64,000 nt of DNA, from the NCBI GenBank assembly GCA_023379265.1, contig JAMCUI010000019.1:9233-73232 (forward strand), given 5' to 3'. Under the pieces are notes generated by a model. It saw only the letters and a program-made list of their open reading frames with translations. It was not told the DNA's origin and did not search any database. Both the position numbers and the translations under genes were made by a program. How positions within the stretch are numbered: the stretch's first letter is position 1; each line of letters opens with the position of its first letter. This document shows, piece by piece, positions 11,563 to 63,609 of the stretch. The stretch comes from Patescibacteria group bacterium. Its GTDB lineage: Bacteria; Patescibacteriota; Microgenomatia; 2-02-FULL-39-11.

Positions 11563-12729
11563 ATGAAAATCCTTTTTTCCCTCACTTATTACTCCCCATA
11601 TGTTTCTGGTTTGACTTTATATGTCAAACGGTTGGCTGAAAAACTGGCACACAAGGACATAAATGTGAACGTCTTGTGTATGAAGCATGATAAAAAACTT
11701 CCATCCTTCGAGATAATTAACGAAGTTGAGATATACAGGGCCCAACCTCTTTTCAAAGTCAGCAAAGGGTTTTTCTCTATTGATTGGATATGGAGAAGCT
11801 TTTCCTTTGTAAGAAAGAGTGAGGTGGTGATTGTGAATTTGCCCCAATTTGAAGGAATAGTCCCGGCATTTATCGCAAGACTACTGGGTAAAAAACTCAT
11901 AAGCGTCTATCATTGTGAGGTAGTTTTGCCCGATGGAATTATCAATAGTATAATCCAGAAATTCCTGGAGTGGTCAAACAAATTGACGCTTTTTCTTTCT
12001 GAAACAGTAATTACTTATACTGAGGATTTTGCGGATAACTCAAAACAATTAGCAGGTCTTAAGGATAAATTAATATATATTTATCCGCCTATTTCTGAGC
12101 CGAAAGTCAATAAAAGAGTACAGAATATGATCAAGAATAAAATTGGCATAGGACAACCGTTTGTCATTGGTGTAGCCGCAAGACTAGCGGCTGAGAAGGG
12201 GATACAATATTTATTTGAGGCGATACCGGATATAATCAAAAATCAAAAATCAAAAATCAAAAAGAATGGTATAAAGATAGTAATCGCCGGTTCAATGGAT
12301 CCTGTAGGAGAAGAAAATCATAGAAATAAAATCTTAAGCCTGGCAAAGAAATATAAAGACTTAATTATCTTTTTGGGAGAGATAGAGCCTGAAAATATGG
12401 GTTCTTTTTATTCTCTTCTGGACGTTTTGGTTTTACCGTCTGTCAATTCTACTGAGGCTTTTGGCATGGTGCAGATAGAGGCAATGATGATGGGGGTACC
12501 TGTAGTAGTGAGCGATCTTCCGGGAGTGAGGGTTCCTGTTCGGAAAACTAAAATGGGAAAGACGGTACCTGTTGGTCAAAGCCAAAAGTTAGCCAGTGCC
12601 ATAGTAGAAGTGTTACAGAGTAGATATACATTTATTAGAGATAGACAGTTGATAGAGAAAGAATTTTCCTTCAAAAGGACATTAGATCTTTATGCGGGTA
12701 TATTAGGTTATAAAAATAAGAAAATCTGA
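11563..12729 (+). CDS. GT-B glycosyltransferase, family GT4-like
   Basis: [21 protein letters not shown] (E-x7-E donor-binding motif) and overall GT4 architecture. Confidence 0.75.
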
Positions 12730-12747
12730 ATTTTTGTAAGTGGGGAG

Positions 12748-14277
12748 ATGAAAGATAAAAGGGTACGTTATTTATTGATTTTAATACTTGTTTTGGGTAG
12801 TGTGGTGAGATTATTCCATCTTGACCGGTTACCCGGAGAGATTTATGGAGATATATCAATTAATATCGAATACCTAGAAAGGATAAGCCAATTGGGATGG
12901 CCGCATAATTTTGTCTTATCTGCAGGCCCTTTTTATTATTATGCTGTTTTTCCAATAATTTTCTTTTTGGGTAATAATTATCTCGCTTTGAAGATTGGAT
13001 CCAGTATATTTGGTATATTAACCATTTTTTTCACATTTTTACTAAGCAGGAAATTAGCCAATCTACAAATAGCCCTTATTGCATCGTTGTTCACTGCTAT
13101 TTCTTTTTGGGTTTTGATTTTTAGCAGATTAGGGAATATTCAAATAATTATCCCTTTAATTATAATCCTGTCTTATTATTTTCTTATTCTTTGGCTAGAG
13201 AGAATTTCCGATAAAAAAGACGGATCATCTTATTTATTTTTGTCGCTAATTTTTGCATGCTTCGGTTTATATACCATGCCTCAGTCATTTATTCTCCTGC
13301 CTCTTATAATATTGACTATATTATTTTATTTATTCTTTTGGCGAAAAAAGATAGAGAATGCACAGGAAATAATTCTTAAGACGTTATTATTATCTTTTAT
13401 ACTTTCCATACCCTTTATTTTCCTTGTTTATTCCGATCTAGCCAATTTTACTCATGGTTATATCGGTGGGAAACTTGGTCTACACCAAGATGTTACGGCT
13501 ACATTGAGCCAATCTCTCATAAATCTTAAACGTGCACTTATGATGTTTAACATAAAGGGAGATATGGTTTTTAGGAGTAATATCTCAAAAGCTCCACATT
13601 TGGATTTCGTGTCTGGGCTGTTACTTATTCTTGGTATAATTATTTGGTTTTGGAAGAATAGACAGATGGCGATAATGTTTGGATTGTTACCGGTTTTTGT
13701 ACTTTTACTTCCTTCCGTACTGGTTTTGGGTCGCCCTCAAGAAGTGCCGAGTGCTTCCCGTGCCATCGGTGTGACTCCGTTTATTTATCTGTTAATAGCG
13801 TATGGCTTTTCAGGTTTGTATGGGTTCCTGAAGCCGAAAATTTCCAAACACATTGCTGTCTTTATTTTGACTGTTATTTTTTGCCAGATTACTTTAGCAA
13901 ATATGCAAAATTATTTTATAAAGTATGCTTACGGGTTACCAAATCACAATCTTGCTTTTGACAGGATTATTGCTAACTGGATAGTGAAGCTACCCTCGCA
14001 GACAAAAGTGTATCTTACTTCATGTTGTTGGGGAGATTGGGGACAACCTGAGCCTAAAGGAGTTTATTATTCACTTGATATACAGGATAGAGGAAGGTAT
14101 TATTTTACACCGCAGTTAAATTGCATGAATTTCCAAAGTACTTCTCCTTACGTCATAATTCTTGATCCAAAAGATAGGATACGGATAAATTCTCTTTATG
14201 AGTGTTTGCATAAATACGTTCATACTTATAAAGCTGGAAACACTGATGTGTTTTCTTATATTTCTTCCTCTTATTAA
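12748..14277 (+). CDS. Polytopic membrane protein, putative GT-C-like glycosyltransferase
   Basis: 509 aa with about 11 or more TM helices. The short N-terminal loop has acidic residues (GEIYGDISINIEYLE). Confidence 0.45.
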   Translation: MKDKRVRYLLILILVLGSVVRLFHLDRLPGEIYGDISINIEYLERISQLGWPHNFVLSAGPFYYYAVFPIIFFLGNNYLALKIGSSIFGILTIFFTFLLSRKLANLQIALIASLFTAISFWVLIFSRLGNIQIIIPLIIILSYYFLILWLERISDKKDGSSYLFLSLIFACFGLYTMPQSFILLPLIILTILFYLFFWRKKIENAQEIILKTLLLSFILSIPFIFLVYSDLANFTHGYIGGKLGLHQDVTATLSQSLINLKRALMMFNIKGDMVFRSNISKAPHLDFVSGLLLILGIIIWFWKNRQMAIMFGLLPVFVLLLPSVLVLGRPQEVPSASRAIGVTPFIYLLIAYGFSGLYGFLKPKISKHIAVFILTVIFCQITLANMQNYFIKYAYGLPNHNLAFDRIIANWIVKLPSQTKVYLTSCCWGDWGQPEPKGVYYSLDIQDRGRYYFTPQLNCMNFQSTSPYVIILDPKDRIRINSLYECLHKYVHTYKAGNTDVFSYISSSY

Positions 14278-14304: not shown

Positions 14305-15093
14305 ATGAGAAAAATTGAATTGTTTCTGAAGAGATATATTAAAGAAAGACCATTATTTTTATCCCTGATTCGTGCCAGAGAAGCGGTGCTTTTTCAGAGT
14401 TATTTACCATTAGAAAGTCCAATACTTGATGTGGGTTGCGGGGATGGATACTTCGCTAGGGTAACCTTATCGAATAATTTTCAGGTCGAGAAGTCGATGA
14501 TTGATGTCGGATTGGATGTAAAAGGCAGTCGGATAGAAGAAGCAAAAAAAATTAATGTATACAAGAAACTGGTTACTTATGAGGGTAAAAATATGCCTTT
14601 CAAAACTAATTATTTCTCAACTGTTGTATCAAACTGTGTCTTGGAACATATAAACGATTTGGACCTGATTCTTGAGGAGATAAACCGTGTTCTGAAACCG
14701 GGAGGTTTATTTCTAACGACAGTGATGGCAGCTCCATGGGAAAGAAATCTCTTCATGACTAAAATTGTGGGTAATTGGTATAAAGACTGGATGAGAAAAA
14801 AACAGGTGCATATCAATTTATTAACGAAAGAACTTTGGGATAAGAGATTTAGAGACGCAGGTTTTCAGATAAAAAGGGTTGAAGGATATTTATCGCCAAA
14901 AGCATGTAGACTGATCGATTTTTGCCATTATATATCCATTCCGAATCTTATTAGTTATAAACTCTTTGGGAAATGGGTTTTATTTCCAAGAATAGCTAGC
15001 GCTGTTTACCCAGAGGGGTGGTTGGCTGAAGTCTTGGAGGAAAAAGTGGAAACGGATACGTCTGGCGCAATATTTTACGTATTGGAGAAATAA
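14305..15093 (+). CDS. Class I SAM-dependent methyltransferase
   Basis: Motif I LDVGCGDGYF and post-I LKPGGLFL. Confidence 0.7.
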   Translation: MRKIELFLKRYIKERPLFLSLIRAREAVLFQSYLPLESPILDVGCGDGYFARVTLSNNFQVEKSMIDVGLDVKGSRIEEAKKINVYKKLVTYEGKNMPFKTNYFSTVVSNCVLEHINDLDLILEEINRVLKPGGLFLTTVMAAPWERNLFMTKIVGNWYKDWMRKKQVHINLLTKELWDKRFRDAGFQIKRVEGYLSPKACRLIDFCHYISIPNLISYKLFGKWVLFPRIASAVYPEGWLAEVLEEKVETDTSGAIFYVLEK

Positions 15094-15102
15094 CTGTTTA
15101 AC

Positions 15103-16830
15103 TCAAAAAGAATTGATCTGCAAATTGGGTACGAACCAGATATCTGAGCGGTAAACGGCTTCTTTTATCCTTTCTTCTCGATTGTTCCACTTATAGCGAA
15201 AATCAGAGATATTGATTTTCTTTATATTGTGTTCCAGGAATCCCAAACATTCTTTTTTGTCAGTAAAAATTATGGTATTTATCCGGTCATTCAGGTTAGA
15301 AAAGCAGGGAGCTTGATAGCTAATTATTTTGAAGTTGGGAAAGAAGTATTTCAGATGGTCCGGAAAGAGGTCAAAATCCGGATTGTTACTGTATATGGCA
15401 AATTGAATTGTGTCTTCATGGTTGATATTTTCCTTTTGCGCGCTGGCAATTGTTTCCCGTAGAACCAATGATCGAAGTCCAAAATATTTTTGCGACCTGT
15501 CATAAATATCAAACTCATAATAGACTGCAATGCCGCATATGGTCAGAAAAAGTATGGAACACCAGAAGAACCTGATGTTTACTTTATAGGTAGAGATGAT
15601 ATCTATCATTGCTGCAATGATTATAGGGATAATAATTATGCTGCGATGAATACCAAAAGAGGGTGGAGGAGTAGCATAGCCGATTGATTGGCCTGAGATA
15701 ATAATGATCCCCAATACCCATAAGGCAATAAAAAAATGCACCTTTTTCCATCTTAGGGTGAGAGCTCCAGCAAGATATAGTATGATTGGAATTGACATTA
15801 TTGCTCCGGCAAAAGGCAGTTGGTTATTATACATGTCGGTATTTTTTATGAAAAAATATTGTAATGACTCTTGTGAATTGAAGAGTAGGGTTGAATAATT
15901 CATTTTTTCCCTAAATAAATTTATCCGTATGTCTTTTCGATTTAAAATTGAGTTTATACCAGATACAGTAGTGGCAAAAAGGCATACGAACAGAAGAAGT
16001 ACAGCAAGCTTTTTCCCATAGAAATAGTTTTTTACCAGTATAATTCCCGTTAGTAAGATAAAAAGAACCGCGCTAGCGAGCGCCGGAGTATATGTTGATG
16101 TCAAAAGTGACAAAATAAAGTAAAGAGCCGTGATTCTGGTTAAGTTTGGTTTTTTTGCTGTGATGAGAAATACACCAGTTGCCGCAAGGGTGAAGGAGAG
16201 AGGTAAAATTACCTGTTCAAATGTCCGGATGATAACTAAAACCACAGGAAAAGCAATAATAGCAAGGACTCCCAATGCTGCAATAAAGTGAATATTCTTC
16301 CGTTTGTCAAAATATATATTCAGACCGCTGTAAAAAAGGAATATTCCCAGAATAAACGGTAAAATAAATCCCAGGCGGTAATTTATTATAGATCTTTGGT
16401 TTGTGAGTTCCGTTGGCAAAGCGGCAATTAAATATTGACGGCTGGGATATCCGAGAAAAGCATTTTGGGCATAACCCAAATCTTTTTTGGCAAAGTTAGT
16501 TAGTCCTGCAGCTACTTCCTGTGTCGCCTCTCCTGAAATATCAATTGGGAAACTGTTGAGTTTAGATGAGACAAGCAAAGTGACAAAAAGAAGCGCAAGT
16601 ATGCCCCACATTTTTTTTTGCCTTAAATCAACGTTGATAATTTTTACAATCCAATATAATGAAAAAAAGAAAAAATAAATAAGAAATATCAACCAGATTT
16701 GACCTGAAATTGTTGCCGCTGTTGTCGAATAATTACCGGATTTTCCGTAAGAGAGCGTGTCTAGAATTGAGATGCTTGCCCCAGCGATAATTACTGTGGC
16801 AGGAAGAATGGATTTTCTGATTTGAGTCAT
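15103..16830 (-). CDS. Polytopic membrane protein, putative GT-C-like glycosyltransferase
   Basis: 575 aa, many TM helices. Its start overlaps the stop of the upstream gene by ATGA. Confidence 0.45.
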   Translation of the reverse strand: MTQIRKSILPATVIIAGASISILDTLSYGKSGNYSTTAATISGQIWLIFLIYFFFFSLYWIVKIINVDLRQKKMWGILALLFVTLLVSSKLNSFPIDISGEATQEVAAGLTNFAKKDLGYAQNAFLGYPSRQYLIAALPTELTNQRSIINYRLGFILPFILGIFLFYSGLNIYFDKRKNIHFIAALGVLAIIAFPVVLVIIRTFEQVILPLSFTLAATGVFLITAKKPNLTRITALYFILSLLTSTYTPALASAVLFILLTGIILVKNYFYGKKLAVLLLFVCLFATTVSGINSILNRKDIRINLFREKMNYSTLLFNSQESLQYFFIKNTDMYNNQLPFAGAIMSIPIILYLAGALTLRWKKVHFFIALWVLGIIIISGQSIGYATPPPSFGIHRSIIIIPIIIAAMIDIISTYKVNIRFFWCSILFLTICGIAVYYEFDIYDRSQKYFGLRSLVLRETIASAQKENINHEDTIQFAIYSNNPDFDLFPDHLKYFFPNFKIISYQAPCFSNLNDRINTIIFTDKKECLGFLEHNIKKINISDFRYKWNNREERIKEAVYRSDIWFVPNLQINSF

Positions 16831-18803
16831 GGAGAGGATCGGTCTAAATAAATCAGACTGAAATAGTCAACCGGTTTTATTTTTTTGAAAATGATCACTT
16901 TTGGATGATCATAGACTGTAAATGATTCATCAGCATAGTCGTCAACAAAGCTTATACCCGATAGGGGACAATTCTGGCTTTTATATGCCACAATTCCGTA
17001 GCGGGAAAAGGGTGGGGTAAGGCACAAACGGATGAATGGTAACGGCAGATTGGGTCGGGAAGTGAACTCAGCTATTTTTTCAAAACCCAGCGTGCCGTTG
17101 AAAAGATCTGTGTAATATCTGTTTGTGATGGGGTATCGGCTGGGTACTGTCATAATTGAGCCGTAGAGTCTGTTGCTTGAGAGAAATATATAGTTGACCT
17201 CTTGAAGTCTTTGAGTCATATCTTTCCATTTTTCAAGGCTGTCTGGGTTATAGAGAGGGAATTCCACAGTTTTATAAAATAATCCTGACGATTTATTATC
17301 CAGGCTTAAAGGTAAACCGTCGTCCCAATGTTCACTTGAGACAACCGAACCGGGTGGAATATTTTGGTATATCCAGTTGGATGCATCAATTCTGGAATTA
17401 TTACGGGCGTAGATTGATACAAAAGAAAAGGGGTAAATAAGGATAAGTATGATAAATGCAAAAGTCAGTAATGATAGGATTCTTGCAGACAATTTATATT
17501 TATCATGCAAGGCAGAGAAAATTTTTGTGGTAAAAAGGGCGGTTACGACGGTAATAAACGGATAGATCAGTATAAAATATCTCATGGCTTTGACAAATTG
17601 GGCTCCCTGGTAGAGAAAAACATAATCGACAAAAAAAAGTGCAGCGAAAAAGAGAAAATCACAATCGCATTGCAGTGATTTTGATACTTCGATCTTTTTC
17701 AATATCAATCCTGAGCTTGCCGAACGGATTGATTTTCTCCAATTTTTCAGTTTGTTAAAAAAAATCAGGTTGTACCAGAGAAATGCAGTAAGAGTTAGAA
17801 GCCCAATAGGCAAACCCATTCCCCAGAAAACGAAGTTCTTAATCGGAAAGATGTAAGGTCTTGTAGTGATCCATTGTACTCCTGGTGGAAACCAAGCATT
17901 CGGGTCATCAAAAGAACGCAGTTGTTTCCAGTTCTCGATCAGTTTGGGATTAGGAAGAGGATTTAGAACGTTTCCAGAGATAAAGGCATACGGTTGGGTT
18001 ATGCGGAAGGAAATATAAAGTGATAACGAGAAAATAAACCCGCAGGTAAAAATATGCAGTAGTTTCCTTTCTTTTAGTAACAGGAAAATGTAACAGAGTC
18101 CAATTATTGGAAGGATGATTAAAGCTGTTATTTTACTTGCTGCTGCAAGACCAAGCGATATCCCTAGAAGTGAACTGAAAATAAAGACTTTATAATCGTA
18201 TATTGAGATATGGAGAACAATCTTAATAAGAAGAAAAAATGTTAGGGCAGTAAAGAATGTAAGGTATGTGTCTACTGCAAAATAATGCGATAGTTGGATG
18301 GGTAGAGCAGATACGGCATAAAACAACATTGATAAAAGCGGAAAAAGGTCAAGCGATTTTATAGAGTATTCTTTCCCAAGAAGGCTAAATTTGAAGGAGG
18401 TAGGTTTCAGAAGTTTTGATCTTGAGATTAACCCACGGGCAATAAGAAATACTAGAAGGACGGTACCAAGGTCAAATCCGGCAGATAACTGTCGCCCAAC
18501 GATGGTAAGGTTGTTGTAATCTGATTTACTGAGAATATCTGCAACAAATTTAGTTAGGAATAGGGGAAACGTGCCATATACAAAAAAGCCAAAGCCTCGA
18601 TTGTGGGGATTTAGAGGAGATTGGGAAGTATTGAAATATTCAAATAAATCTTGAGGCCATAAAATAGCGTTTCCTACCATGGTAAGGAATCTTTCGTCAG
18701 GATGGAGGTGTTGGTTGTTATCCCAGTTAATTCCATAAAATCTGAAAAAAGCGGCAAGAAAGAGAATTACTATTATCAATAATTTATACGACTTTATCCT
18801 CAT
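16827..18803 (-). CDS. ArnT/PMT-like GT-C glycosyltransferase (DE motif)
   Basis: First extracytoplasmic loop carries HPDERF, matching the canonical GT-C/GT39/GT83 DE-x-x-(F/Y) motif. About 13 TM helices; C-terminal soluble domain ends ...DESFTVYDHPKVIIFKK. Start moved to the ATG at 18803. Confidence 0.55.
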   Translation of the reverse strand: MRIKSYKLLIIVILFLAAFFRFYGINWDNNQHLHPDERFLTMVGNAILWPQDLFEYFNTSQSPLNPHNRGFGFFVYGTFPLFLTKFVADILSKSDYNNLTIVGRQLSAGFDLGTVLLVFLIARGLISRSKLLKPTSFKFSLLGKEYSIKSLDLFPLLSMLFYAVSALPIQLSHYFAVDTYLTFFTALTFFLLIKIVLHISIYDYKVFIFSSLLGISLGLAAASKITALIILPIIGLCYIFLLLKERKLLHIFTCGFIFSLSLYISFRITQPYAFISGNVLNPLPNPKLIENWKQLRSFDDPNAWFPPGVQWITTRPYIFPIKNFVFWGMGLPIGLLTLTAFLWYNLIFFNKLKNWRKSIRSASSGLILKKIEVSKSLQCDCDFLFFAALFFVDYVFLYQGAQFVKAMRYFILIYPFITVVTALFTTKIFSALHDKYKLSARILSLLTFAFIILILIYPFSFVSIYARNNSRIDASNWIYQNIPPGSVVSSEHWDDGLPLSLDNKSSGLFYKTVEFPLYNPDSLEKWKDMTQRLQEVNYIFLSSNRLYGSIMTVPSRYPITNRYYTDLFNGTLGFEKIAEFTSRPNLPLPFIRLCLTPPFSRYGIVAYKSQNCPLSGISFVDDYADESFTVYDHPKVIIFKKIKPVDYFSLIYLDRSSP

Positions 18804-18811
18804 ATTAATAG

Positions 18812-20812: not shown

Positions 20813-20984
20813 GGAGGAAAGTTCAAAGCTCAAAACTCAAATGTCAACCCACTCGACAAGCTCAGGGTTGATGCTAAGCATAGTCGAAGCATCAAAACCA
20901 AATACAAAATCTTTTGTTCTTTTTATAAGGTTTTCAGTTTTAAGATACGGTTTTGAATTTTCTCATTTGATATTTAAATTTTAT

Positions 20985-21905
20985 TTAGAGGATATACAGC
21001 ATAAGTATGACGGCGACTCCCCAAAGAATAATTGAGACTATAAGTGGTATATCGGTAGTAATGATTTTTTCTGGTCTTTCACCCTCAGTGCTTTCATATG
21101 CCAGTTGTGCAAAGCGCATAAGGCCATAAATGACAAAAGGAATAGTGATAATCATCCATTTGCGGTCCAATGCCTGAGGTATAAAACTTGTCAAAAAAGT
21201 CCTAAATGGAGCGTTAAATTGTGGCGGTTCCTCAAGGAATGTAAAGAGCGCATACGCCAAAATAGCTGCAGATCCAAACATTGATGTATAAAAATCCAGA
21301 AGGTGTTCTCTATACTGGAAAAGTGTCGGACGTGTGGTAGCTCCCTTAAAAAGGAGCTCCGCGTGTCTTTTGGTGGAGGCTACAAAGAGAGCGACAAAAA
21401 GGATGGTTAGAAAGAGCCAGAAGGGTAAATGATAATTTGTTAGCGCTTCGCCTGCATATGCACGAAGTATAAATGAAAAAGCGATGCCAAGGACATCCAT
21501 GACAGCATGTTTTTTCAAAACCGTCGAGTAAAGAAGATGAAGGGCTGTAAAAGCTGCTGCCGTAATAAAGAACATCGGAGAGATAAGGATGGCTGCAATA
21601 AGACCAAAAAATGCCAGGAAAAAGGCCAATTCCATGGCTGAGTTGATATCAATAAGACCCGCAGCCAGCGGCCTGTTTTTCTTTTCCGCATGAAGCCTGT
21701 CTTGTTTAAGGTCAATAATATCATTGAAAAGATACGAGGCTGAGGAAATTGCACAAAAGATAATAAATCCGTAGATGGAAAGAGTGAAGAAGCGCGGGTT
21801 GAAAAGTTTTCCATTAAATATGATGGCGGCAAAAAGGATAAAATTCTTTACCCATTGGTTTGGACGCAAGGCTATGATGATTGGCGGGATTTTTTTAATC
21901 CTCAT
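20985..21905 (-). CDS. UbiA-family prenyltransferase (decaprenyl-phosphate phosphoribosyltransferase-like)
   Basis: First Asp-rich motif NDIIDLKQDRLH (NDxxDxxxD), about 8 TM helices, and about 300 aa as in DPPR-type UbiA enzymes. Confidence 0.7.
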   Translation of the reverse strand: MRIKKIPPIIIALRPNQWVKNFILFAAIIFNGKLFNPRFFTLSIYGFIIFCAISSASYLFNDIIDLKQDRLHAEKKNRPLAAGLIDINSAMELAFFLAFFGLIAAILISPMFFITAAAFTALHLLYSTVLKKHAVMDVLGIAFSFILRAYAGEALTNYHLPFWLFLTILFVALFVASTKRHAELLFKGATTRPTLFQYREHLLDFYTSMFGSAAILAYALFTFLEEPPQFNAPFRTFLTSFIPQALDRKWMIITIPFVIYGLMRFAQLAYESTEGERPEKIITTDIPLIVSIILWGVAVILMLYIL

Positions 21906-50358: not shown

Positions 50359-50490
50359 ATGAGTTGTTTGAAAGTGATATTTGAATATTTCTTTCAATTA
50401 AAAAGTTGGAGTAAACATTCCTTATGCGATCTTCGGAAGTTTACACATGTTTCGCGGCTTTTTAACGACTCGTTTTTCTCAATAGAGTGA
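50359..50490 (+). CDS. Candidate 43-aa small protein downstream of a conserved-motif RBS; hypothetical
   Basis: GGGAGA lies 8 nt upstream of the ATG, inside the conserved upstream motif. The ORF overlaps a repeated intergenic element and could be non-coding. Confidence 0.2.
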   Translation: MSCLKVIFEYFFQLKSWSKHSLCDLRKFTHVSRLFNDSFFSIE

Positions 50491-51919: not shown

Positions 51920-52002
51920 CAATCCTTAAAGGTTTCTTCAGGTCGGTGTAGTGTTTACAGCTTATGTTTGGATGATGTAATTTATTTATATTTGTGGTAG
52001 AA

Positions 52003-55533: not shown

Positions 55534-56083
55534 GAAAGATGCTATAAGGGTGGCAGGGATTCATCAAAGAGAATTGTCCGGTTTCCTGCCGGAATTGGGA
55601 ATAGAGTTCCTACAGGCTTTTTATGAAACATCATTAAATATCCCAGAGATGTTTACATATATTCATCTTCAGAATGAACAAATTTCCGGATTCGTCAGCG
55701 GAATAAATACCGTCAACGGGTTGAATAAAAGATTGATATCACGTAATCCGAAAGCCTTTATTTTGCCACTTTTGAGGTTTTTTCTTACTCATCCCATGCG
55801 GACTGTCAAATTAGTCAAAACCTTCTCCTATCCGGGGTTCACAGGCGATATCCCAGAGTTATTATCTATCGCCGTAGATGGTAGGTGGCAACGGAGGGGT
55901 ATTGGTAAGAAGCTTTTTTTCACGACTGTTGATGAGTTTAAAAAAAGAGGGATTAAAAAATTCAGAATTAGTGTATATGACAGATTATCCGCAAATGAGT
56001 TTTACCGGAAAATCGGCTGCAGGTTTGAAACCTCATTTACTTTCCTGGGGGAGAAGATGAATTATTATTTATACAAGATTTGA
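55514..56083 (+). CDS. GNAT-family N-acetyltransferase
   Basis: Acetyl-CoA-binding motif IAVDGRWQRRGIGKKLF. Confidence 0.7.
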   Translation: MIRKMYKKDAIRVAGIHQRELSGFLPELGIEFLQAFYETSLNIPEMFTYIHLQNEQISGFVSGINTVNGLNKRLISRNPKAFILPLLRFFLTHPMRTVKLVKTFSYPGFTGDIPELLSIAVDGRWQRRGIGKKLFFTTVDEFKKRGIKKFRISVYDRLSANEFYRKIGCRFETSFTFLGEKMNYYLYKI

Positions 56084-56161: not shown

Positions 56162-57952
56162 ATGCTAAAAAAACTTTTTTTATTAATTCCTGAAAAATTA
56201 GTAATTGCGGTAGAATTGGGGCTTATTGGCCTTTTTCTGTATTGGCACTGGCGGCTTGGCATGATGCGCTTTTTTGACATAGATGAATTTGCCCATCTCC
56301 ACTGGACTCATGATCTTTTTACGGGTCTTCGACCCTATACTGATTTTTTCTATTTTATCCCTCCTCTTTATCTTTTTGCCTTACTCCCCTTATTTTTTAT
56401 TTCGGGAAGGAGTGCGGCAATTTTTTTCCTGGGGCGGGGACTAGCTTTTGGCATATTTTTCGTTGTTTGTTTACTCTTGTTTTTATTGGTAAGAAAAGTA
56501 AGGGATAGCAGGGTAGCGCTATTATCGGTTTTGGTCTTGTCGTTTTTGCCCATACCTGCAGATAAATGGATAGAAATAAGACCGGACGGTCTGGCAATCC
56601 TCTTTGGAATGGTAGGAATGCTATTTTTGGTGAAAGGACTGAAGGATAAAAATAATACCCACTTTTTTATATCGGGACTTTTTTACTCATTGGGAGTTTT
56701 GGTCTTGCCGAAGATAGTTTTCTGGGCTTTTTGCGCAGCTTTCATAATTGCGATTTATCTTTTCATAAACCAGAAAAAAATAAAGGCCGGAAATTTTATA
56801 AAGTACCTTTTCGATTTATTTACCAGGTTCAAATGGCTGAAACTGTTTATTTTAGGAGTTTCCATACCCATAGTTCTTGTAGTAGCTCTTTTTATATATT
56901 TTGGCGATCCGGGAAAGGCTTTTTACCTTTCGACAAAGGTGGCTACCGATGCCACAAAAGTTCTGGGGAACAAGTTTCCCATCCCCCCCAATTTCCTTTT
57001 TTATCCAAATGATGTCTATTATGGGGCTCCGGGGGAAAGCTGGCCGTGGAAGATGAACCTTTTCGTCTGGATTGCAGCGGCAGTTTTTGCGATTATAAAG
57101 TTGGTATCTTTTCTGGATCGGGAAACTATTGAAGAGGGTCTTTCCCAGCTTCTTCTTGCCTTATCTTTTCTTCTTTACCTGGTTGCCTATATTTATATTT
57201 TTCCGCTTCGGCACGAACAGTATCTATTGCCGGCTTCAGTATTTGTAGCCTTTTACTTTGCCGATTTTGTCATTTCTTTATTTAGAAATTTAATGAGGCG
57301 GTGGAGAAGGGTAGGGGCTGCGTTTGGTGTAGGAGTGTTTATAGCTGTTTTGGGGTTGGTGTTTTGGTCGGGAAAGGATATGTATGACTGGAAGTTGCGC
57401 TGGTCAAGCCTGGACGTTTCTTTTTATAACCATCTTTTTTCACTTATACCCAAAAATGAAAAAGTTTTTGACCTGACGGGGGAAGCCATTTTTTCGCCAG
57501 ACGGATATTATTTCTGTTGTATACCGTATGGTCAGTATGACGAGGCGCTGCAGTTTCAATACCCGGATCTTGAAGCCGATTTGAGAAAGCAGAATGTGCA
57601 TTTTGTCTATATGCAGAGGGAAAACAGGATTTTTGTCCTGCCTGCTGAGCAGCAAAAAGTCATAAGACAGTACTATACGATATATCCAGATGGCAACCCT
57701 CCATACTTGTTGGTTTCCGGGGCACTGGTGAGCTTCTCCTATGCGGGGCAGCCGCAGGATTTTAACCTGATCGCATCGGGGAATTATGACCTTTTCTGGA
57801 ATTACCAAAAACTGACAGGTGGGCAAACCTCACGGATGGTAAAGATTGATGGTAAAATAGTGACGCAAAACCCTGTTTATTTATCGGCCGGAGAACATAC
57901 AATTGTGGTAAATTCATCGGCGGGGTTGATGAAACTGATGTATTCTTTTTAA
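56162..57952 (+). CDS. ArnT/PMT-like GT-C membrane glycosyltransferase
   Basis: First-loop FDIDEFAHLHW DE motif and about 12 TM helices. Confidence 0.5.
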   Translation: MLKKLFLLIPEKLVIAVELGLIGLFLYWHWRLGMMRFFDIDEFAHLHWTHDLFTGLRPYTDFFYFIPPLYLFALLPLFFISGRSAAIFFLGRGLAFGIFFVVCLLLFLLVRKVRDSRVALLSVLVLSFLPIPADKWIEIRPDGLAILFGMVGMLFLVKGLKDKNNTHFFISGLFYSLGVLVLPKIVFWAFCAAFIIAIYLFINQKKIKAGNFIKYLFDLFTRFKWLKLFILGVSIPIVLVVALFIYFGDPGKAFYLSTKVATDATKVLGNKFPIPPNFLFYPNDVYYGAPGESWPWKMNLFVWIAAAVFAIIKLVSFLDRETIEEGLSQLLLALSFLLYLVAYIYIFPLRHEQYLLPASVFVAFYFADFVISLFRNLMRRWRRVGAAFGVGVFIAVLGLVFWSGKDMYDWKLRWSSLDVSFYNHLFSLIPKNEKVFDLTGEAIFSPDGYYFCCIPYGQYDEALQFQYPDLEADLRKQNVHFVYMQRENRIFVLPAEQQKVIRQYYTIYPDGNPPYLLVSGALVSFSYAGQPQDFNLIASGNYDLFWNYQKLTGGQTSRMVKIDGKIVTQNPVYLSAGEHTIVVNSSAGLMKLMYSF

Positions 57953-57971: not shown

Positions 57972-58346
57972 ATGCTGAAAAATTATATTATCATACTTTT
58001 GACAATCTGCATCTCTGTCATTGCCCAGACGCTTTTGAAAACCGGGATGAAGGAGATAGGAACGGTTGAAAGTCTGTCACTTGAAAAAATTATTCCTCTT
58101 GCGATAAAGATGGGTACAAATGTTTTTGTCCTGGCGGGTCTTTCGCTTTACGGAATAGGTACTTTTTTTTGGCTTATTCTTCTTTCCCGACTTGATTTGT
58201 CATTTCTTTATCCTTTTGGTACGTTGCAATACTTTTTTATCTTTATTGTTTCATATCTGGTTTTTGGTGAGGATATAAAACTGGCCAGAATTGTGGGTGT
58301 GTCAATCATACTCGTGGGGATTTTTATAATAAGCAAGTTTGGGTGA
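57972..58346 (+). CDS. Small 4-TM DMT/EamA-like protein (ArnE/ArnF- or GtrA-like candidate lipid-linked sugar flippase)
   Basis: 124 aa with 4 predicted TM helices. The N-terminal ISVIAQTLLKTG pattern resembles ArnF. Confidence 0.45.
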   Translation: MLKNYIIILLTICISVIAQTLLKTGMKEIGTVESLSLEKIIPLAIKMGTNVFVLAGLSLYGIGTFFWLILLSRLDLSFLYPFGTLQYFFIFIVSYLVFGEDIKLARIVGVSIILVGIFIISKFG

Positions 58347-58355: not shown

Positions 58356-59960
58356 GTGAAGCGCAGATTTGAATACATTTCTGTCTTTTTCCTTTCTTTC
58401 CTGACTGTCCTTTTTATAGAGTTGCAGTTTATAGTAGACGCCGTAAGAACTCCCAAAAACACCTTTTATCTGGGTACGGTGCACTGGCCGCCGGACTATT
58501 TTTACTACCTGTCTCAATTTATTCAGGGAAAGTCCCATGTTTTGTCTTCGACAATACTTTATACCGGAGAGAGATTACCTCTTACGGTAATAGGCTGGCA
58601 AAACGTCTTGGCAGGCAGGATACTGACCGGAATACTTGGGCTTCAGGTTATATTGACTTACCAGATTACGGTTGTTCTTTTCCTTTCATTTTTCCTTATT
58701 TTGGCGTACCGTTTGCTTTTGGAGATATTTCCAAAAGAAGCCGGTAAAAGGATGCTTTCCTTTTTCTTTTTCGTCACAAGTACATCAATGCCTCTTTTTT
58801 CCGGATCTCTAAAAACAGGATTAAAACTGTCTTTCTATAACTATTGGTACAATACCGGCAATATATTTGACCGCCTGGGGCCGGCCCCGAACCATCTTCT
58901 TGCCAGTGCTTTTATGGCAGCAGGGTTTCTCCTATCGGCTTTGTTAGTAAAGTCCAACAATAGTGGAGGGAAAAGGAAAAAAATTCTTGCCGGTCTAAGT
59001 GTCTGCGGACTATTACTTGCAAGCATATCGCCGGTGGAGTGGGGACTTTTGGTAGCAGCAGTTTTTGGAGCAGCTTTTATATACCAGAGGAAAAGATTCC
59101 AACCTTACTATTTTGCGCCTTTTATAGCGCTTTTCCTATCCGGATTGCCTTTGGCAGTCTATGTCAAATATATTTTTTACCAGGAGCCATACGTAAAATC
59201 GTCCCTTTGGGAGGCGACACAACAGCTTGCTATGACTCCGTATGCTCTTTTTATGGGTAGCGGGCTTGTGATCATTTTTGCGCTTATTGGGGGATGGGCT
59301 TTTTTCAGAAAAACAACTTTTGAGAGGTTGGCTGGATTATTTCTTATTGCTATATCCGCCTTTTTTTACTTTTCTCCAACTCCAGACAAGCTGGGATTGA
59401 CTAATGCCAGGTTTTGGCCCCCAGCAATTTATATATTTATAGCAGCTGGAGCTGCTCAAGGAGTATTCCAGATTTATCAAAGATTTTCTAAACATCAGAA
59501 GATAATACTTATTTTTCTTATTATTATATATTTATTTACTATTATCCCTTCTGATTTAGCCCAACAGAGGGAGGAGGTTTTGGTGTCCCGCGCGGGAAAC
59601 GCTTTTTATTATATTCCTTCAGATGCTTACGGTGCCTATATAAAGACGATGGAGATGACCGTCCCAAATGATATAATTCTTGCCCAGTGGCCTTTTAATG
59701 AATCTTTTCCGGCTTTGACTGGCAGGAAGTCGTTTTTTGGCTATAATCTCTATACGATAAATTCAGCCCAAAAAGAAAAAGACATTTTTGCTTTTTTTGA
59801 CGGAAAAATGAGCCCGGAGGAAGTGAAAAATATGCTTGCGGGATATAAAATAGATTATATACTGGGATATCCGTGGATTGCTAAAATAGATTCTTATCCG
59901 TTTCTGAAGAAAGTATTCCAGAATAATATATTAGCACTGTATAAAGTGTTAGCCAATTAA
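58356..59960 (+). CDS. Polytopic membrane protein, paralog family A
   Basis: LGTVHWPPDYFYYLSQFIQGK and ...FFGYNLYTINSAQKEKDIFAFFDGKMSPEEVKNML..IDYILGY. GTG start. Confidence 0.5.
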   Translation: MKRRFEYISVFFLSFLTVLFIELQFIVDAVRTPKNTFYLGTVHWPPDYFYYLSQFIQGKSHVLSSTILYTGERLPLTVIGWQNVLAGRILTGILGLQVILTYQITVVLFLSFFLILAYRLLLEIFPKEAGKRMLSFFFFVTSTSMPLFSGSLKTGLKLSFYNYWYNTGNIFDRLGPAPNHLLASAFMAAGFLLSALLVKSNNSGGKRKKILAGLSVCGLLLASISPVEWGLLVAAVFGAAFIYQRKRFQPYYFAPFIALFLSGLPLAVYVKYIFYQEPYVKSSLWEATQQLAMTPYALFMGSGLVIIFALIGGWAFFRKTTFERLAGLFLIAISAFFYFSPTPDKLGLTNARFWPPAIYIFIAAGAAQGVFQIYQRFSKHQKIILIFLIIIYLFTIIPSDLAQQREEVLVSRAGNAFYYIPSDAYGAYIKTMEMTVPNDIILAQWPFNESFPALTGRKSFFGYNLYTINSAQKEKDIFAFFDGKMSPEEVKNMLAGYKIDYILGYPWIAKIDSYPFLKKVFQNNILALYKVLAN

Positions 59961-60025: not shown

Positions 60026-61828
60026 ATGAAAAGTAAGAAAAGAATAATTCTCTTAATACTCACAGTTTTGATACTTGTACCCCTTGTTATTCCGGTTTTT
60101 ACCCCTTATGTATTGGGTACGGCAGACGGTTTGGCGCATAAGTTCAGGCTTGTTTCTTTTGAACACTCGTTAAGAGAAGGGTACTTGCGTCCCCGCTGGT
60201 TAGCCGATCAGGCGTTGGGGTACGGTTCTCCGATTTTCATCTTCAATTATTTGATGCCTTACTATAGTATCGCGGTAGTTAATCTTTTTGGACTGACAGT
60301 AAACCTGTCAACACAGGTTTTTATTGCAGCAACAATTCTTCTATCCTTTTTCTTTATGTTCCTTTTGGGTAGAAAGCTGTGGGGGACAAATGCTGGGTTG
60401 GTCGCAGGAGGTGTATATGCCTGGGCCCCTTACCACCTTCTGACAATTTTCCTTTATGAAGGATGGGGAGAATTTACCGCTTTTGTTTTCCCGCCACTAC
60501 TTTTATTTCTGATACTAAAAATCAGAGATTTATGGGAGAAATGTGGTGTAAAAGCCGGAAAAACCAGATATATACCGGAAGAGATGGGGAAACCACTTAT
60601 GTTTTATCTGGTCATGACTGTTTTTTCCTGGTTTCTTTTTATTCTGACTCATAACGTATCTGCGCTCCTGTTCTCGCCCCTATTGCTTTTCCTTTCATTT
60701 GTAGCTGCAGATTTTCGGCTTTTCAAACCATTTCTTCTGACAGTTTATGCTTTTCTCACTACTGTTTTTCTGGGCGCATTTTTCTGGTTGCCGGCAATTT
60801 CCATGGATAACCTGACTGCATATCCGCAGCTTATGGCAAAAGAGATGGAGATCCGGGGATCGTACTTTAAGTCTTTCTATACGCTTTTATCCGTGGCTTT
60901 TTCTACTATAAGGAGCGGATCTGCAGGATATTACGATTTTACCATTGGCCTGCCAATAATAGTTGTTTTTGTTGTCGGATTGGCATTTATTATCAGATAT
61001 TTGGTGAAATTATTCAAAACATCAAAAATTCAAATGCCAAAAATAGCCAATGAATTAGTCAAAGTAGTGACGGGGAGAGAAAAGTTAGTGATTTGGCTGT
61101 TTGTAATTTTATTTGGTTCTCTTTATTTATCCAACCATGCGTCAAATCTGCTTTGGGACATTCCACTTTTTAGGTTTATAGTCTATCCGTTCCGCTTCCT
61201 TTTCCCGGCCACTTTTGCCGGAAGTCTGCTCGCCGGATGGATTGGCCGCAAAAATAACCTTATTGCTATTACGTTTATACTTTTGGCTATAGTTGCCGGA
61301 AGACCCTATACTAATCCCGCAATAGACAAATTTCCCTTTTCCGACGGCTATTTCCAAAAGGTGCAGACCGTTTTCCATCCTCCTGGAACCCTGAAGAATA
61401 TGGCAACCAGGGAATTCCTGCCTCAAGGAGCTGATCTTTCGTTCCTGCAAAATGTGCAGGATGAGTATCTCACTTCAGGCAAATTGCCGCAAAAATTTGT
61501 CTTTACACAAGGTTCGGGGGAAGTGTTATCGGAGGATATTAAAGCTGAAAGAATGCAAGTTGTTGTTGCTTCCAAAAGTCAAAGTCAGTTGACGGTCAAT
61601 GCTTTTTATTTTCCCGACTGGTATGTCTTTGTCGATGGAAAACAATCGGTGCTTGATCGGGACCAATATGGGCGGATGAGAGTGTGGTTATCAGGTGGAA
61701 GGCATGATATCTTATTTGTGTTTGGGGTAAGCAATATTGAGAAAGTGGGTGACGCAATTTCGATATTGGGAGTCATATTTTTAGCCGGATCGGTTTATTA
61801 TTTGTGGAGAAAAAGTAAGTTGAATTAA
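60026..61828 (+). CDS. YfhO-like GT-C membrane protein (tentative)
   Basis: N-terminal GTADGLAHKFRLVSFEHSLREGYLRPRWLADQALGYGSPIFIFNYLMPYY fits the YfhO N-terminal pattern. Confidence 0.45.
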   Translation: MKSKKRIILLILTVLILVPLVIPVFTPYVLGTADGLAHKFRLVSFEHSLREGYLRPRWLADQALGYGSPIFIFNYLMPYYSIAVVNLFGLTVNLSTQVFIAATILLSFFFMFLLGRKLWGTNAGLVAGGVYAWAPYHLLTIFLYEGWGEFTAFVFPPLLLFLILKIRDLWEKCGVKAGKTRYIPEEMGKPLMFYLVMTVFSWFLFILTHNVSALLFSPLLLFLSFVAADFRLFKPFLLTVYAFLTTVFLGAFFWLPAISMDNLTAYPQLMAKEMEIRGSYFKSFYTLLSVAFSTIRSGSAGYYDFTIGLPIIVVFVVGLAFIIRYLVKLFKTSKIQMPKIANELVKVVTGREKLVIWLFVILFGSLYLSNHASNLLWDIPLFRFIVYPFRFLFPATFAGSLLAGWIGRKNNLIAITFILLAIVAGRPYTNPAIDKFPFSDGYFQKVQTVFHPPGTLKNMATREFLPQGADLSFLQNVQDEYLTSGKLPQKFVFTQGSGEVLSEDIKAERMQVVVASKSQSQLTVNAFYFPDWYVFVDGKQSVLDRDQYGRMRVWLSGGRHDILFVFGVSNIEKVGDAISILGVIFLAGSVYYLWRKSKLN

Positions 61829-61908
61829 TTGGAAGCTATTCTCAGAGAAGATTTTCACCTGCTTCGTATCTTCCTGATGAAGTAAAGGTTTCAAAGAGAA
61901 TTAAATTA

Positions 61909-63609
61909 ATGGAGATCCTACTAATAGGTTTTATCATAGTTTTATTTCTTTTTCTCAACGGCTTGCCGCTTATAGTTGGTATGATAAATACTCCCAAAGG
62001 AAGCCAGTTTTTGGGAACTGTCCATTGGCCGCCTGATTATTTTTATTATCTATCTCAGTTTTTTCAGGGCAAAGGCAACTGGTTTGCCAGTTATGACCTT
62101 TTTACCGGTGACTTCATATCAAAGACATTTGTGGGATGGGTAAACGTCTTTTTGGGACATGTATTTAGTCTATTGGGTATAGGCAGTGTAGCAGCTTACC
62201 AGATTTCAATTGTCATTTTTGCAGTTATCCTTCTTATAGCGTCTTATCTTCTCATAAGAGAAATCTTTCCTGGTTCGGCTTCAAAAAGAGTCGCGGCTTT
62301 TTTATTTTTTGTCACAAGCAACGCTTTTCCCAAGATTGTTGAATCAGGAGGCAAACTAACTTTTTCCTATTTTGACTACTGGTACAACACAGGGTTGCCT
62401 TTTAACCGCTTGGGCGGTGTGCCACACCATTTTATTGCCCGGGCAGGCATAACATTAGCGATATTGTTGGCAGTCTGGTGGTGGAAAAGGTTGGGGAAAT
62501 ATAGATTCGACAAAAAAAGTATCTCTAAGTATATCATTGCGTTTCTTCTTTCGGGATTTATCCTTGCCAGTGTGGAGCCGGTACAGTGGGGGATAACTGT
62601 AGGTGTTTTGGGGATAGTAGCATTTTTAATCTTTGTCATGCCGAATTTATTTCTGCATCCCGATAAGACAATGAAAGAGACCCTGAAAGAGATTCCGAAA
62701 CGAGTTCAGGATGACACTTCGGTATCATTAACTGACACCTTAGCGTCAGTTTGGGGAGGCAAGAGTTTTTTTCTTCCTTCTGTTTTACTCTTAATTGGCG
62801 GGTTGCCAATGGCAGTTTATCTGAAGAGAACATTTTCAACACTGCCTTTTATACAGCTGGCTCTTTGGGAGAATAGCCAGCAATTGCATATCAGTTTTAT
62901 GACATATATTTTAGCAAATGGTTCCGTTGTCGCTGTTGCAATTCTCGGAGTGGTTTTCTTTGTCAGGAAAATGGATTTGGCAAGGCTTACCGCCTTTGTT
63001 TTTACATTTGTGACAATATTTTTATTTTTCTCTCCTATTCCGGCACTGGTCTCAGTAGTAAACGTGAGGTTTTTACCTGCCACAACAACGCTTTTCCTAT
63101 CATGCATGGCAACAGCCGGAATTTTTACTGTCGCAAGCCGGTTTAGCGAAGCAAAAAATATCGTTTTCCTGTTACTTACTCTATCAATCATCATCATAAT
63201 GTTGCCGACTTATTATATCCAACTCCAGGACAGGGTAAAGGTGGATCCTGCTTTCGGACTTATTTATCTACCGCAAAAGGTACTTGTTTCATATCAAAAG
63301 GCACAGGTAATTTCCACCCCTTCAGATACTTTTATGGCTGTTTATCCTTTTAATTTGTCGCTTCCGGCCATCGCCGGACGTCGCGTCTTTGAAGGACATG
63401 AGCTTCTGACAATAAATGACGGTAAAAAAATGGGGGAGGCCAACGATTTTTTTGCCGGAAAGATAACTTCTGAGAAAATGGATAGTTTCCTCCATAAAAA
63501 CAATATCCATTATCTATTTATCTACTCGACTGAAAAAGAATTTGCATCAATGCCTTTTCTGAAAAAAGTATATGATAACGAGATGGTGGCAATTTATAAA
63601 GTAAATTGA
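61909..63609 (+). CDS. Polytopic membrane protein, paralog family A
   Basis: LGTVHWPPDYFYYLSQFFQGK and ...FEGHELLTINDGKKMGEANDFFAGKITSEKMDSFL..IHYLFIY. Confidence 0.5.
   Translation: MEILLIGFIIVLFLFLNGLPLIVGMINTPKGSQFLGTVHWPPDYFYYLSQFFQGKGNWFASYDLFTGDFISKTFVGWVNVFLGHVFSLLGIGSVAAYQISIVIFAVILLIASYLLIREIFPGSASKRVAAFLFFVTSNAFPKIVESGGKLTFSYFDYWYNTGLPFNRLGGVPHHFIARAGITLAILLAVWWWKRLGKYRFDKKSISKYIIAFLLSGFILASVEPVQWGITVGVLGIVAFLIFVMPNLFLHPDKTMKETLKEIPKRVQDDTSVSLTDTLASVWGGKSFFLPSVLLLIGGLPMAVYLKRTFSTLPFIQLALWENSQQLHISFMTYILANGSVVAVAILGVVFFVRKMDLARLTAFVFTFVTIFLFFSPIPALVSVVNVRFLPATTTLFLSCMATAGIFTVASRFSEAKNIVFLLLTLSIIIIMLPTYYIQLQDRVKVDPAFGLIYLPQKVLVSYQKAQVISTPSDTFMAVYPFNLSLPAIAGRRVFEGHELLTINDGKKMGEANDFFAGKITSEKMDSFLHKNNIHYLFIYSTEKEFASMPFLKKVYDNEMVAIYKVN

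Follow-up and report, generated by a model that had tools for sequence, protein, structure and literature searches.

A stretch of 64,000 nucleotides (contig JAMCUI010000019.1, assembly GCA_023379265.1, Patescibacteria group bacterium), hereafter the window in its whole length, was found to encode 18 polytopic membrane proteins, 17 of which have GT-C glycosyltransferase identity or fold, together with relatives of enzymes that load sugars onto polyprenyl phosphate. The 18 genes amount to 32.4 kb, i.e. 51% of the 64 kb window, a share far above chance. This array is a lineage-wide feature of Candidatus Gottesmanbacteria (Microgenomates, Candidate Phyla Radiation, CPR) and not unique to the present genome. 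We consider it probable that it represents the Gottesmanbacteria version of an extracytoplasmic glycan-assembly system using lipid-phosphate sugars, analogous to the assembly of mycobacterial arabinan and lipoarabinomannan (LAM); the island points to an elaborate surface glycan without earlier description. Genes are designated below by their lower coordinate in the window.

GT-C identity of the membrane proteins

An earlier annotation made from the letters alone (hereafter the sequence-only reading) had listed 18 membrane proteins of 417-843 aa, all of which were recovered as open reading frames (ORFs) where it had placed them, each with 6-12 transmembrane (TM) segments by hydropathy prediction. 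Pfam matches at or above cut-off were obtained with DUF2298 for 5111, with PMT_2 for 12748, 47765, 50462 and 56162, with a TMEM260-like family for 18812, with DIE2_ALG10 for 49026 and with YfhO, in the C-terminal part, for 53254. In nine proteins the membrane part was without any Pfam or NCBIfam match, and the NCBIfam search of the nine unassigned proteins returned nothing except weak PgfM matches of 53254. Sequence and profile searches against the PDB retrieved no relative for family A (see below), 33717, the 15103 family, the DUF2298 protein and the ALG10-like protein. The matches to hidden Markov models, those of orthologues and the hhalign alignments support the earlier view that the membrane proteins are GT-C-type glycosyltransferases and not transporters; GT-C identity or fold is shown for 17 of the 18, and for the DUF2298 protein the assignment is that of its Pfam family only.

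By profile-profile comparison the 18 proteins form at least seven mutually unrelated sequence families. Links between families were detected only among 33717, 53254 and 60026 and between 12748 and 15103; because these comparisons mostly found no kinship, the proteins do not represent one expanded family.

The four DE motifs quoted for the first loop were each found where claimed, directly after the first hydrophobic segment (residues 38-48): HPDERF at residue 38 of 16827, DPDERN at residue 40 of 18812, IDEYYHF at residue 48 of 49026 and DIDEFAH at residue 39 of 56162. First-loop acidic residues were likewise invariant in family A (D45), the 36500 family (D29), the 33717 family (D33 and D36) and the 53254 family (D65), while in the 15103 family E101 was invariant and D68 nearly so; the placement of acidic residues relative to the membrane derives from hydropathy and model secondary structure only. 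From the co-encoded polyprenyl-phosphate phosphoribosyltransferase (PPPRS) and the ArnC/GtrB-class GT2 enzyme, described below, we infer that the GT-Cs would use lipid-phosphate-linked sugar donors.

A conserved core and a variable remainder

Synteny was scanned with one genome per species, which gave 78 loci encoding family A, nearly all of them from Gottesmanbacteria. Genes of the 33717 and 36500 types were both present in 50 of the 78 loci (the 33717 type in 52), and the usual core order was 33717-type, 36500-type, a gene for a 231-aa protein and family A, often flanked, as here, by housekeeping genes for isochorismatase, M23 peptidase and Rho.

The first core gene (33717-36248, minus strand) encodes an 843-aa YfhO-type GT-C with a C-terminal TM helix. 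It was assigned through the orthologues, six of 21 of which matched Pfam YfhO, and through hhalign comparison with the family of the YfhO-like 53254 (98% probability, E 2e-13). The second (36500-38491, minus strand, 663 aa) is a GT87/ALG6-like GT-C fused to a C-terminal NPCBM (CBM51-like) module (118 bits), a type of carbohydrate-binding module (CBM) otherwise typical of glycoside hydrolases. GT87 was matched by ten and Alg6_Alg8 by five of its 24 orthologues, and its PDB profile matches were to CBM modules only. The fusion was kept in all 24 aligned orthologues, in which the invariant D29 lies within GFxADISFWKSW. The third core gene (38822-39517, minus strand) encodes a single-pass membrane protein of 231 aa without a Pfam match; its 49 orthologues always occupy the same position between the NPCBM-bearing GT-C and family A, with P99, D110 and W228 invariant.

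Family A comprises five paralogues in the window, is without a Pfam or NCBIfam model and was found almost only in Gottesmanbacteria. Its core member (39579-41279, plus strand, 566 aa) combines a TM domain similar to those of AftA and STT3 with a C-terminal domain resembling that of oligosaccharyltransferases (OSTs). The other four are tied to 39579 by BLAST: 41280-42935 (minus, 551 aa, E 9e-47 to 39579), 44847-46592 (minus, 581 aa, E 5e-42 to 39579), 58356-59960 (plus, 534 aa, 34% identity to 61909, E 2e-104) and 61909-63609 (plus, 566 aa), the last gene of the island, with matches to other family A members. AftA, which primes arabinan, was the best structural match of the family, and there was resemblance to STT3, PglB and AglB too, the C-terminal mixed alpha/beta domain included, at sequence identities of only about 8-12%. 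In the family A alignments A1 (with 41280 among its members) and A2 the WWDxG motif was absent at the boundary of the TM and external domains; the sole conserved WW of the family (residues 158-159) is located in an earlier external loop. An OST assignment was dismissed for want of this motif.

Downstream of the core the content varies by genome and includes family A paralogues, PMT_2, YfhO-like and other polytopic proteins, GT2, DegT, SDR (short-chain dehydrogenase/reductase), methyltransferase and GNAT genes, with recurrent sub-modules such as GNAT-DegT-GT2-PMT_2. The related loci of about 21.6 kb contained a median of seven GT-C homologues (range 1-10) covering 66% of the sequence, and their composition differed; in a relative with 90% identity (L003) the gene order was that of the window. 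The GT-C genes cannot be neighbours by chance, since their synteny extends across the lineage. The synteny comparison called for by the sequence-only reading thus yielded a conserved core, in 50 of the 78 loci, and a variable remainder.

It should be mentioned that many of the species-representative metagenome-assembled genomes bearing the island (L003, L006, L011, L012 and others) are titled 'uncultured Gammaproteobacteria bacterium'. This title looks like a placeholder, at odds with gene content and synteny.

GT-C genes outside the core

Three membrane genes on the minus strand (15103-20833) form a translationally coupled trio, as had been proposed. The junction at 16827/16830 is an ATGA overlap of 4 nt, and that at 18812/18815 a TTGA overlap, or there is an alternative ATG 12 nt downstream. 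The gene 18812-20833 encodes a PMT/TMEM260-like GT-C of 673 aa (TMEM260-like, 31.1 bits, cut-off 24.2), and 16827-18815 a PMT-like GT-C of 662 aa that scored 22.3 bits with Pfam PMT, 0.4 bits under the cut-off of 22.7; the two are paralogues (BLAST E 1e-39). The last gene of the trio, 15103-16830, encodes a 575-aa GT-C of a rare family, which elsewhere also occurs within GT-C arrays, one of them with a UbiA gene 6 kb away. At a locus of another lineage (L090, 9968-14803), a 1611-aa protein is encoded beside a GT-C of the 15103 family and near a UbiA gene; it matched PMT, PMT_2 and DUF2298, carries NHL repeats and looks like a fused double GT-C.

The PMT_2-type GT-Cs are 12748-14277 (plus, 509 aa, 29.8 bits, cut-off 26.1), 47765-49066 (plus, 433 aa, 30.7 bits), 50462-51820 (minus, 452 aa, 37.8 bits) and 56162-57952 (plus, 596 aa, 31.9 bits), the latter with 44 homologues in the related loci. 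In several of the membrane proteins the sequence-only reading had seen the first-loop DE motif of ArnT/PMT-type GT-C enzymes. No ArnT orthologue was found among the PMT_2 proteins: BLAST of the four against Escherichia coli ArnT gave E 0.015 or worse and there was no NCBIfam ArnT equivalog, so that ArnT orthology was dismissed.

Three proteins, and not two as previously counted, are of the YfhO type. Apart from 33717, these are 53254-55533 (plus, 759 aa, Pfam YfhO 38.5 bits), with weak NCBIfam matches to PgfM1 and PgfM2 and 43 homologues in the related loci, and 60026-61828 (plus, 600 aa), a PTPS_related/YfhO-type GT-C identified by hhalign and by the Pfam matches of its homologues. The alignment of 60026 with the YfhO-like family (96.6% probability, E 6e-10) covers residues 28-405, i.e. 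the TM region; eight of ten sampled homologues matched PTPS_related, some of them also YfhO or PMT_2, and they fit PTPS_related better than YfhO. All three proteins are built like YfhO, with a TM bundle at the N-terminus, a large external domain and, at the C-terminus, a TM helix predicted at residues 812 (33717), 725 (53254) and 574 (60026).

A further GT-C, 49026-50279 (plus, 417 aa), belongs to the DIE2/ALG10 family (115 bits, E 5e-33), mainly known from the eukaryotic endoplasmic reticulum glucosyltransferase ALG10; the 78 related loci contain no homologue of it. Outside the main blocks, 5111-7567 (minus strand) encodes the 818-aa DUF2298 ('YYY') polytopic protein (334 bits). In other lineages, DUF2298 genes adjoin those for PMT_2 proteins or for the flavoenzyme considered below.

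A putative pentofuranose donor route and its flavoenzyme neighbour

Directly upstream of the three coupled GT-C genes lies 20985-21905 (minus strand), previously listed as a UbiA-family enzyme. Membership in the UbiA superfamily was correct, but the protein is predicted more specifically to be a polyprenyl-phosphate 5-phosphoribosyltransferase similar to mycobacterial decaprenyl-phosphate phosphoribosyltransferase (DPPRS), rather than a generic UbiA enzyme. It matched the NCBIfam model of the latter (NF008977) over its full length with 192 bits and E 2e-56 (equivalog cut-off 234), and other UbiA families reached at most 61 bits, the HAD-fused PRK08238 excepted. The best PDB match was Mycobacterium tuberculosis DPPRS (8J8J, E 6e-30), with the NDxxDxxxD motif aligned. 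The DPPRS-like identity of 20985 would thus add a second, pentofuranose donor route, which the sequence-only reading had missed. Neither a flippase nor a phosphatase was found within the block of PPPRS and three GT-C genes, the sole small 4-TM candidate being 35 kb off, and the window gave no FAD_binding_4 or DprE2-type match.

Beside the PPPRS gene, 21988-23241 (minus strand) encodes an FAD-dependent oxidoreductase of the amine-oxidase fold, a member of the very large PRK07233 family (NCBIfam NF005560, 408 bits, cut-off 252). Its context was compared in six loci (L081-L086), namely one annotated as Chloroflexota (Limnocylindrales), one annotated as Saccharimonadales, one of a Gottesmanbacteria genome and three on metagenome contigs that bear no label. 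The flavoenzyme gene in five of the six adjoins, and often overlaps, a GT-C-type (PMT_2/PMT) gene; in the exception, L082, it stands beside a 632-aa membrane gene without a Pfam match, with a DUF2298 gene next. Ahead of the flavoenzyme gene there are usually PilO-like genes and a gene for an Ig-like protein (Big_1 or Big_13); in the window this recurrent neighbour is a small Big_1 protein (23271-23717, minus strand). A UbiA gene was present in only one of the six contexts, that of the Gottesmanbacteria genome, as in the window. Since the context tracks GT-C genes and not UbiA, the flavoenzyme is regarded as a conserved GT-C partner, and its interpretation as a DprE1 equivalent tied to the PPPRS was dismissed. 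Possible roles are the oxidation of a lipid-linked sugar or the modification of the polyprenol carrier.

A plausible amino-sugar donor route

The soluble genes named by the sequence-only reading were all present, but the complete amino-sugar donor toolkit that they were thought to form was not. Its lipid-phosphate donor side is present. The GT2 protein 43395-44171 (plus strand, 258 aa) belongs to the polyprenyl-phosphate glycosyltransferase class (ArnC/GtrB/DPMS-like): its PDB relatives were ArnC (E 2e-15), GtrB and DPMS only, its DxD aligns with that of E. coli ArnC, and 65 homologues occur in the related loci, the score with NCBIfam ArnC being 65 bits (equivalog cut-off 529). The end of its gene is overlapped by a S-adenosylmethionine (SAM)-dependent methyltransferase ORF (44132-44842, plus), and this pair is recurrent in the related loci; a second such methyltransferase is encoded at 14305-15093 (plus), and both matched Methyltransf_23 and Methyltransf_11. 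The gene 51994-53199 (plus) encodes a nucleoside diphosphate (NDP)-keto-sugar aminotransferase of the DegT/PseC/WecE/ArnB class (Pfam DegT 377 bits), which scored under the equivalog cut-offs of NCBIfam PseC, WecE and ArnB; in alignment with E. coli ArnB its pyridoxal phosphate (PLP) lysine is conserved. A 124-aa protein with four hydrophobic segments (57972-58346, plus) is an ArnE/ArnF-like (EamA/SMR-type) candidate lipid-phosphate sugar flippase, with 52 bits to NCBIfam ArnF (cut-off 99), 29 bits to ArnE and a weak match to Pfam EamA.

Other parts of the toolkit did not stand. The extended-SDR-fold protein (46763-47749, plus; Pfam Epimerase 154 bits) has an intact Rossmann GxxGxxG, but compared with E. 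coli GalE and RfbB both the Tyr and the Lys of YxxxK are replaced by Asn and the dehydratase TDE reads TRN. An orthologue with 90% identity has the same catalytic changes, and in the nearest other orthologues the Tyr is kept and the Lys is not. A canonical 4,6-dehydratase or epimerase was dismissed on these grounds; the protein may be a non-catalytic or non-canonical NDP-sugar-binding one. The GNAT acetyltransferase (55514-56083, plus), a candidate amino-sugar N-acetyltransferase, gave non-specific matches (Acetyltransf_1, Acetyltransf_10), and in three related loci (L023, L069, L071) the GNAT gene adjoins those for DegT, GT2 or PMT_2. The window yielded no homologue of a nucleotidyltransferase, a phosphatase, ArnA, ArnD or DprE. 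An amino-sugar route is plausible from the families present, and incomplete in this window because the SDR catalytic residues, a nucleotidyltransferase, ArnA and ArnD are absent.

The gene 11563-12729 (plus) encodes a cytoplasmic GT4 (GT-B) glycosyltransferase (Glycos_transf_1, Glyco_transf_4; no NCBIfam equivalog at cut-off), which possibly makes a primer or glycolipid. Pfam families of Wzx, Wzy, ABC transporters or exporters and initiating phosphoglycosyltransferases were matched by no ORF of at least 150 aa in the window, and therefore the locus is not a standard O-antigen cluster, in agreement with the sequence-only reading; a capsule cluster of this standard kind was dismissed likewise.

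Extent and setting of the island

The window is bacterial. It opens with the 3' end of a 23S rRNA gene followed by 5S rRNA and also encodes S1, RadA, Rho, HtrA, an OmpR-type two-component pair and an M23/LysM peptidase. One of its proteins shows 100% identity to an entry of a 'Patescibacteria group bacterium', and nearly all relatives of this protein are from Gottesmanbacteria; relatives for which long contigs or complete chromosomes are available have about 1.0-1.2 Mb. The G+C content is about 39% across the whole window with no compositional break.

A single continuous locus was ruled out by about 10 kb of housekeeping genes at 23.7-33.7 kb, which split the island and encode Rho, an M23 peptidase, two tRNA-Ala, NrtR, an NAPRT-like protein, a permease and isochorismatase. 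The island stops at 63609, and the next genes are of the alanine-racemase family. Between radA and the DUF2298 gene (3858-5110, 1.25 kb) there was no ORF longer than 69 aa and no Rfam match.

Within the housekeeping part, a perfect 38-bp tandem repeat of 6.6 copies with 100% identity extends over 28639-28887. Its unit starts within the 3' end of tRNA-Ala(GGC) (28588-28662), comprising the T-arm, acceptor stem and CCA with 14 more bases, and it yields spurious minus-strand ORFs; the repeat has arisen by amplification very recently, or else it is an artefact of the assembly. A small double treble-clef zinc-finger protein (zf_Tbcl and zf_Tbcl_2) is encoded at 33338-33655, immediately upstream of the core.

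Proposed assembly and rival explanations

If the island indeed serves extracytoplasmic glycan assembly, polyprenyl phosphate would be loaded with sugars at the cytoplasmic face by at least two routes. In the first, 20985 would move ribose-5-phosphate from phosphoribosyl pyrophosphate (PRPP) to give a polyprenyl-phosphate-pentofuranose donor. In the second, the GT2 43395 would move a hexose or amino sugar, possibly tailored by DegT 51994, GNAT 55514 and the methyltransferases, from a nucleotide sugar onto polyprenyl phosphate. The lipid-linked monosaccharides would then be flipped, with the ArnE/F-like 57972 as the candidate flippase, and consumed at the outer face by the 18 GT-Cs, most of which would build and branch a cell-surface glycopolymer or lipoglycan stepwise, like the mycobacterial Emb, Aft and Mpt enzymes. 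The conserved core would make a common backbone and the genome-specific GT-C set a strain-specific decoration.

The donor enzymes are identified at family level and the synteny of a conserved core plus a variable part is observed; the nature of the sugars, their flipping across the membrane and an acceptor that is a polysaccharide and not a protein are what we infer. We favour a stepwise-built glycopolymer or lipoglycan because few donor enzymes stand against many GT-Cs, because of the core CBM and the AftA-like structural match, and also because of the GT87-like enzyme, the GT4 as a possible primer maker and the core-plus-variable pattern typical of surface-antigen loci. One GT2 and one PPPRS for 18 GT-Cs fits a scheme of few donors and many linkage- or acceptor-specific transferases; a 'combinatorial' system, as suggested by the sequence-only reading, is not shown.

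Several points weigh against this interpretation. The GT2 is without a predicted TM helix or anchor, and no homologue of the ArnF-like 57972 was found in the 78 related loci. For the pentofuranose route no 5-phosphatase, flippase or DprE1/E2-type epimerase was found in the window, and the flavoenzyme beside the PPPRS goes with GT-Cs generally and not with UbiA. Furthermore, as the SDR is without its catalytic residues, no source can be assigned in the window for the keto-sugar substrate of DegT. Finally, the acceptors may be S-layer proteins, pilins or other proteins, and adjacency of genes says less about a common function where, as here, the genome is small and gene-dense than it would in a large genome.

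A wider version of this interpretation is possible, and we advance it tentatively. Gottesmanbacteria, and perhaps other Microgenomates, may bear a complex surface lipoglycan or wall polymer that contains pentofuranose and amino sugars and is assembled wholly outside the membrane, by a set of GT-Cs whose evolution was separate from that of the mycobacterial set. The lineage-restricted and hitherto unrecognised family A, with its OST-like external domain, would belong to this set, and the PRK07233 flavoenzyme would have the lipid-linked donor or the carrier as its substrate. In these CPR bacteria the variable half of the island would take the place that an O-antigen locus has elsewhere and would determine the specificity of host attachment or of phages.

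The serious rival is a protein glycosylation machinery, in which the PMT-like, TMEM260-like, PMT_2 and OST-like family A enzymes would modify surface or secreted proteins (S-layer, pilins, adhesins) with lipid-phosphate monosaccharides, each on its own target or sequon. The DE-motif proteins 16827 and 18812 match PMT and TMEM260, which are protein O-mannosyltransferase families, and family A resembles STT3, PglB and AglB, C-terminal domain included. Moreover, genes for Big_1/Big_13 Ig-like proteins and PilO adjoin the flavoenzyme-PMT_2 unit in several lineages, with a sortase gene near it in L082. However, family A is without WWDxG at the TM/periplasmic boundary and its AftA match is equally good, the CBM-fused GT-C of the conserved core suggests a glycan acceptor, and 18 protein glycosyltransferases in a genome of about 1 Mb would be without precedent. 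We regard protein glycosylation as rather unlikely.

It is improbable, in our view, that several independent three-component systems decorate a wall polymer made beforehand, teichoic-acid-like or other, each adding one side-chain sugar as in Firmicutes, where a CsbB/GtrB-type GT2 works together with a small flippase and a YfhO-type GT-C. Three YfhO/PTPS-type GT-Cs, a GtrB/ArnC-class GT2 and a small 4-TM protein fit this list, but there are only one GT2 and one small flippase per 18 GT-Cs, neither a GtrA/GtcA-family flippase nor teichoic-acid synthesis genes were found in the window, and the conserved core consists of GT-Cs and not of a cytoplasmic polymer synthase.

An Arn-type modification of envelope lipid with a 4-amino sugar against cationic peptides, the other GT-Cs being unrelated neighbours, is very improbable: although ArnC (GT2), ArnF (small 4-TM protein) and, among others, ArnB (DegT) were the best NCBIfam or PDB names, every score was far under the equivalog cut-offs, ArnA and ArnD were not found, none of the PMT_2 proteins is orthologous to ArnT, the lineage-wide synteny of the GT-C genes shows that they are not chance neighbours, and Patescibacteria are generally held to have a single membrane and no lipid A. 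Neither this nor the standard O-antigen pathway is supported.

The GT-C genes of the region, about 32 kb, correspond to about 3% of a genome of the relatives' size. Their maintenance despite a genome of about 1 Mb and minimal biosynthesis implies that the surface glycan is central to the lifestyle, most likely in host attachment or phage evasion. The island supplies at least one GT-C family without a Pfam or NCBIfam model plus a second, very rare one, and, under the interpretation favoured here, would be a second, phylogenetically remote case of arabinan-style serial GT-C assembly from lipid-phosphate donors. The pairing of flavoenzyme and GT-C is conserved as far as Chloroflexota, and the core-plus-variable architecture could become a typing locus for these uncultured organisms.

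Comparison with known systems

The sequence-only reading held that no such array had been described. No prior account of GT-C arrays in CPR, Microgenomates or Gottesmanbacteria was indeed found in the searchable literature, which is not proof of none, but the array is not unique, being lineage-wide in Gottesmanbacteria. The class of mechanism is already known; new are the density and diversity of GT-Cs in a CPR genome, the lineage-restricted GT-C family without a model, the conserved island architecture and the flavoenzyme-GT-C pairing.

The Arn (PmrHFIJKLM) pathway, which adds 4-amino-4-deoxy-L-arabinose (L-Ara4N) to lipid A, shares with the island the joint occurrence of ArnB-, ArnC- and ArnE/F-like proteins and PMT_2 (GT83-like) GT-Cs; the kinship is at family level only, the island has neither ArnA nor ArnD nor an ArnT orthologue, and the place of the formyltransferase is taken by a GNAT. 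The island differs from the oligosaccharyltransferases STT3, PglB and AglB in that family A is without WWDxG after the last TM helix and no genes for the assembly of a lipid-pyrophosphate-linked oligosaccharide are nearby. The transmembrane glycosylation systems of Firmicutes (CsbB/GtrB GT2, GtcA/GtrA flippase and YfhO/GtlB GT-C) resemble it in the class of GT2 polyprenyl-phosphate sugar synthase, the small 4-TM protein and the YfhO-type GT-Cs, in which the external domain is large and a TM helix is present at the C-terminus. Here, however, the flippase candidate is ArnE/F-like and not of the GtrA family, the GT2 is without TM helices, one GT2 goes with 18 GT-Cs and there are no teichoic-acid genes.

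The concept of a PPPRS, a flippase and a GT-C acting together, and the presence of CBMs on GT-Cs, are established (Kelly et al. 2024, PMC11127046). The pentofuranose systems of that work have three components, namely a PPPRS, a MATE or SMR flippase and a GT136 GT-C. Similar are the predicted PRPP-dependent polyprenyl-phosphate ribose synthase beside GT-Cs, the CBM-bearing GT-Cs and auxiliary redox enzymes that may diversify the pentose. In the island there is no fused or adjacent PRP phosphatase, MATE flippase or ORF13- or DprE-type epimerase, and three coupled GT-Cs are present instead of one.

The parallel drawn above is with the arabinogalactan-LAM system of mycobacteria and corynebacteria (DPPRS Rv3806c, DprE1/E2, AftA-D, EmbA-C, Mpt/PimE). 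The island differs from it in having no DprE1/E2 homologues, a flavoenzyme of the amine-oxidase and not the VAO fold, and no Rv3807c-type phosphatase or proteins of Emb or AftD size; moreover, it adds YfhO-, ALG10- and DUF2298-type members and its host is a patescibacterium with a genome of about 1 Mb. Common to both are a DPPRS-like gene beside several GT-C genes, many GT-Cs on few lipid-phosphate donors, carbohydrate-binding domains on GT-Cs, a GT87-like enzyme together with a cytoplasmic GT4, and AftA as the best structural match of the core family.

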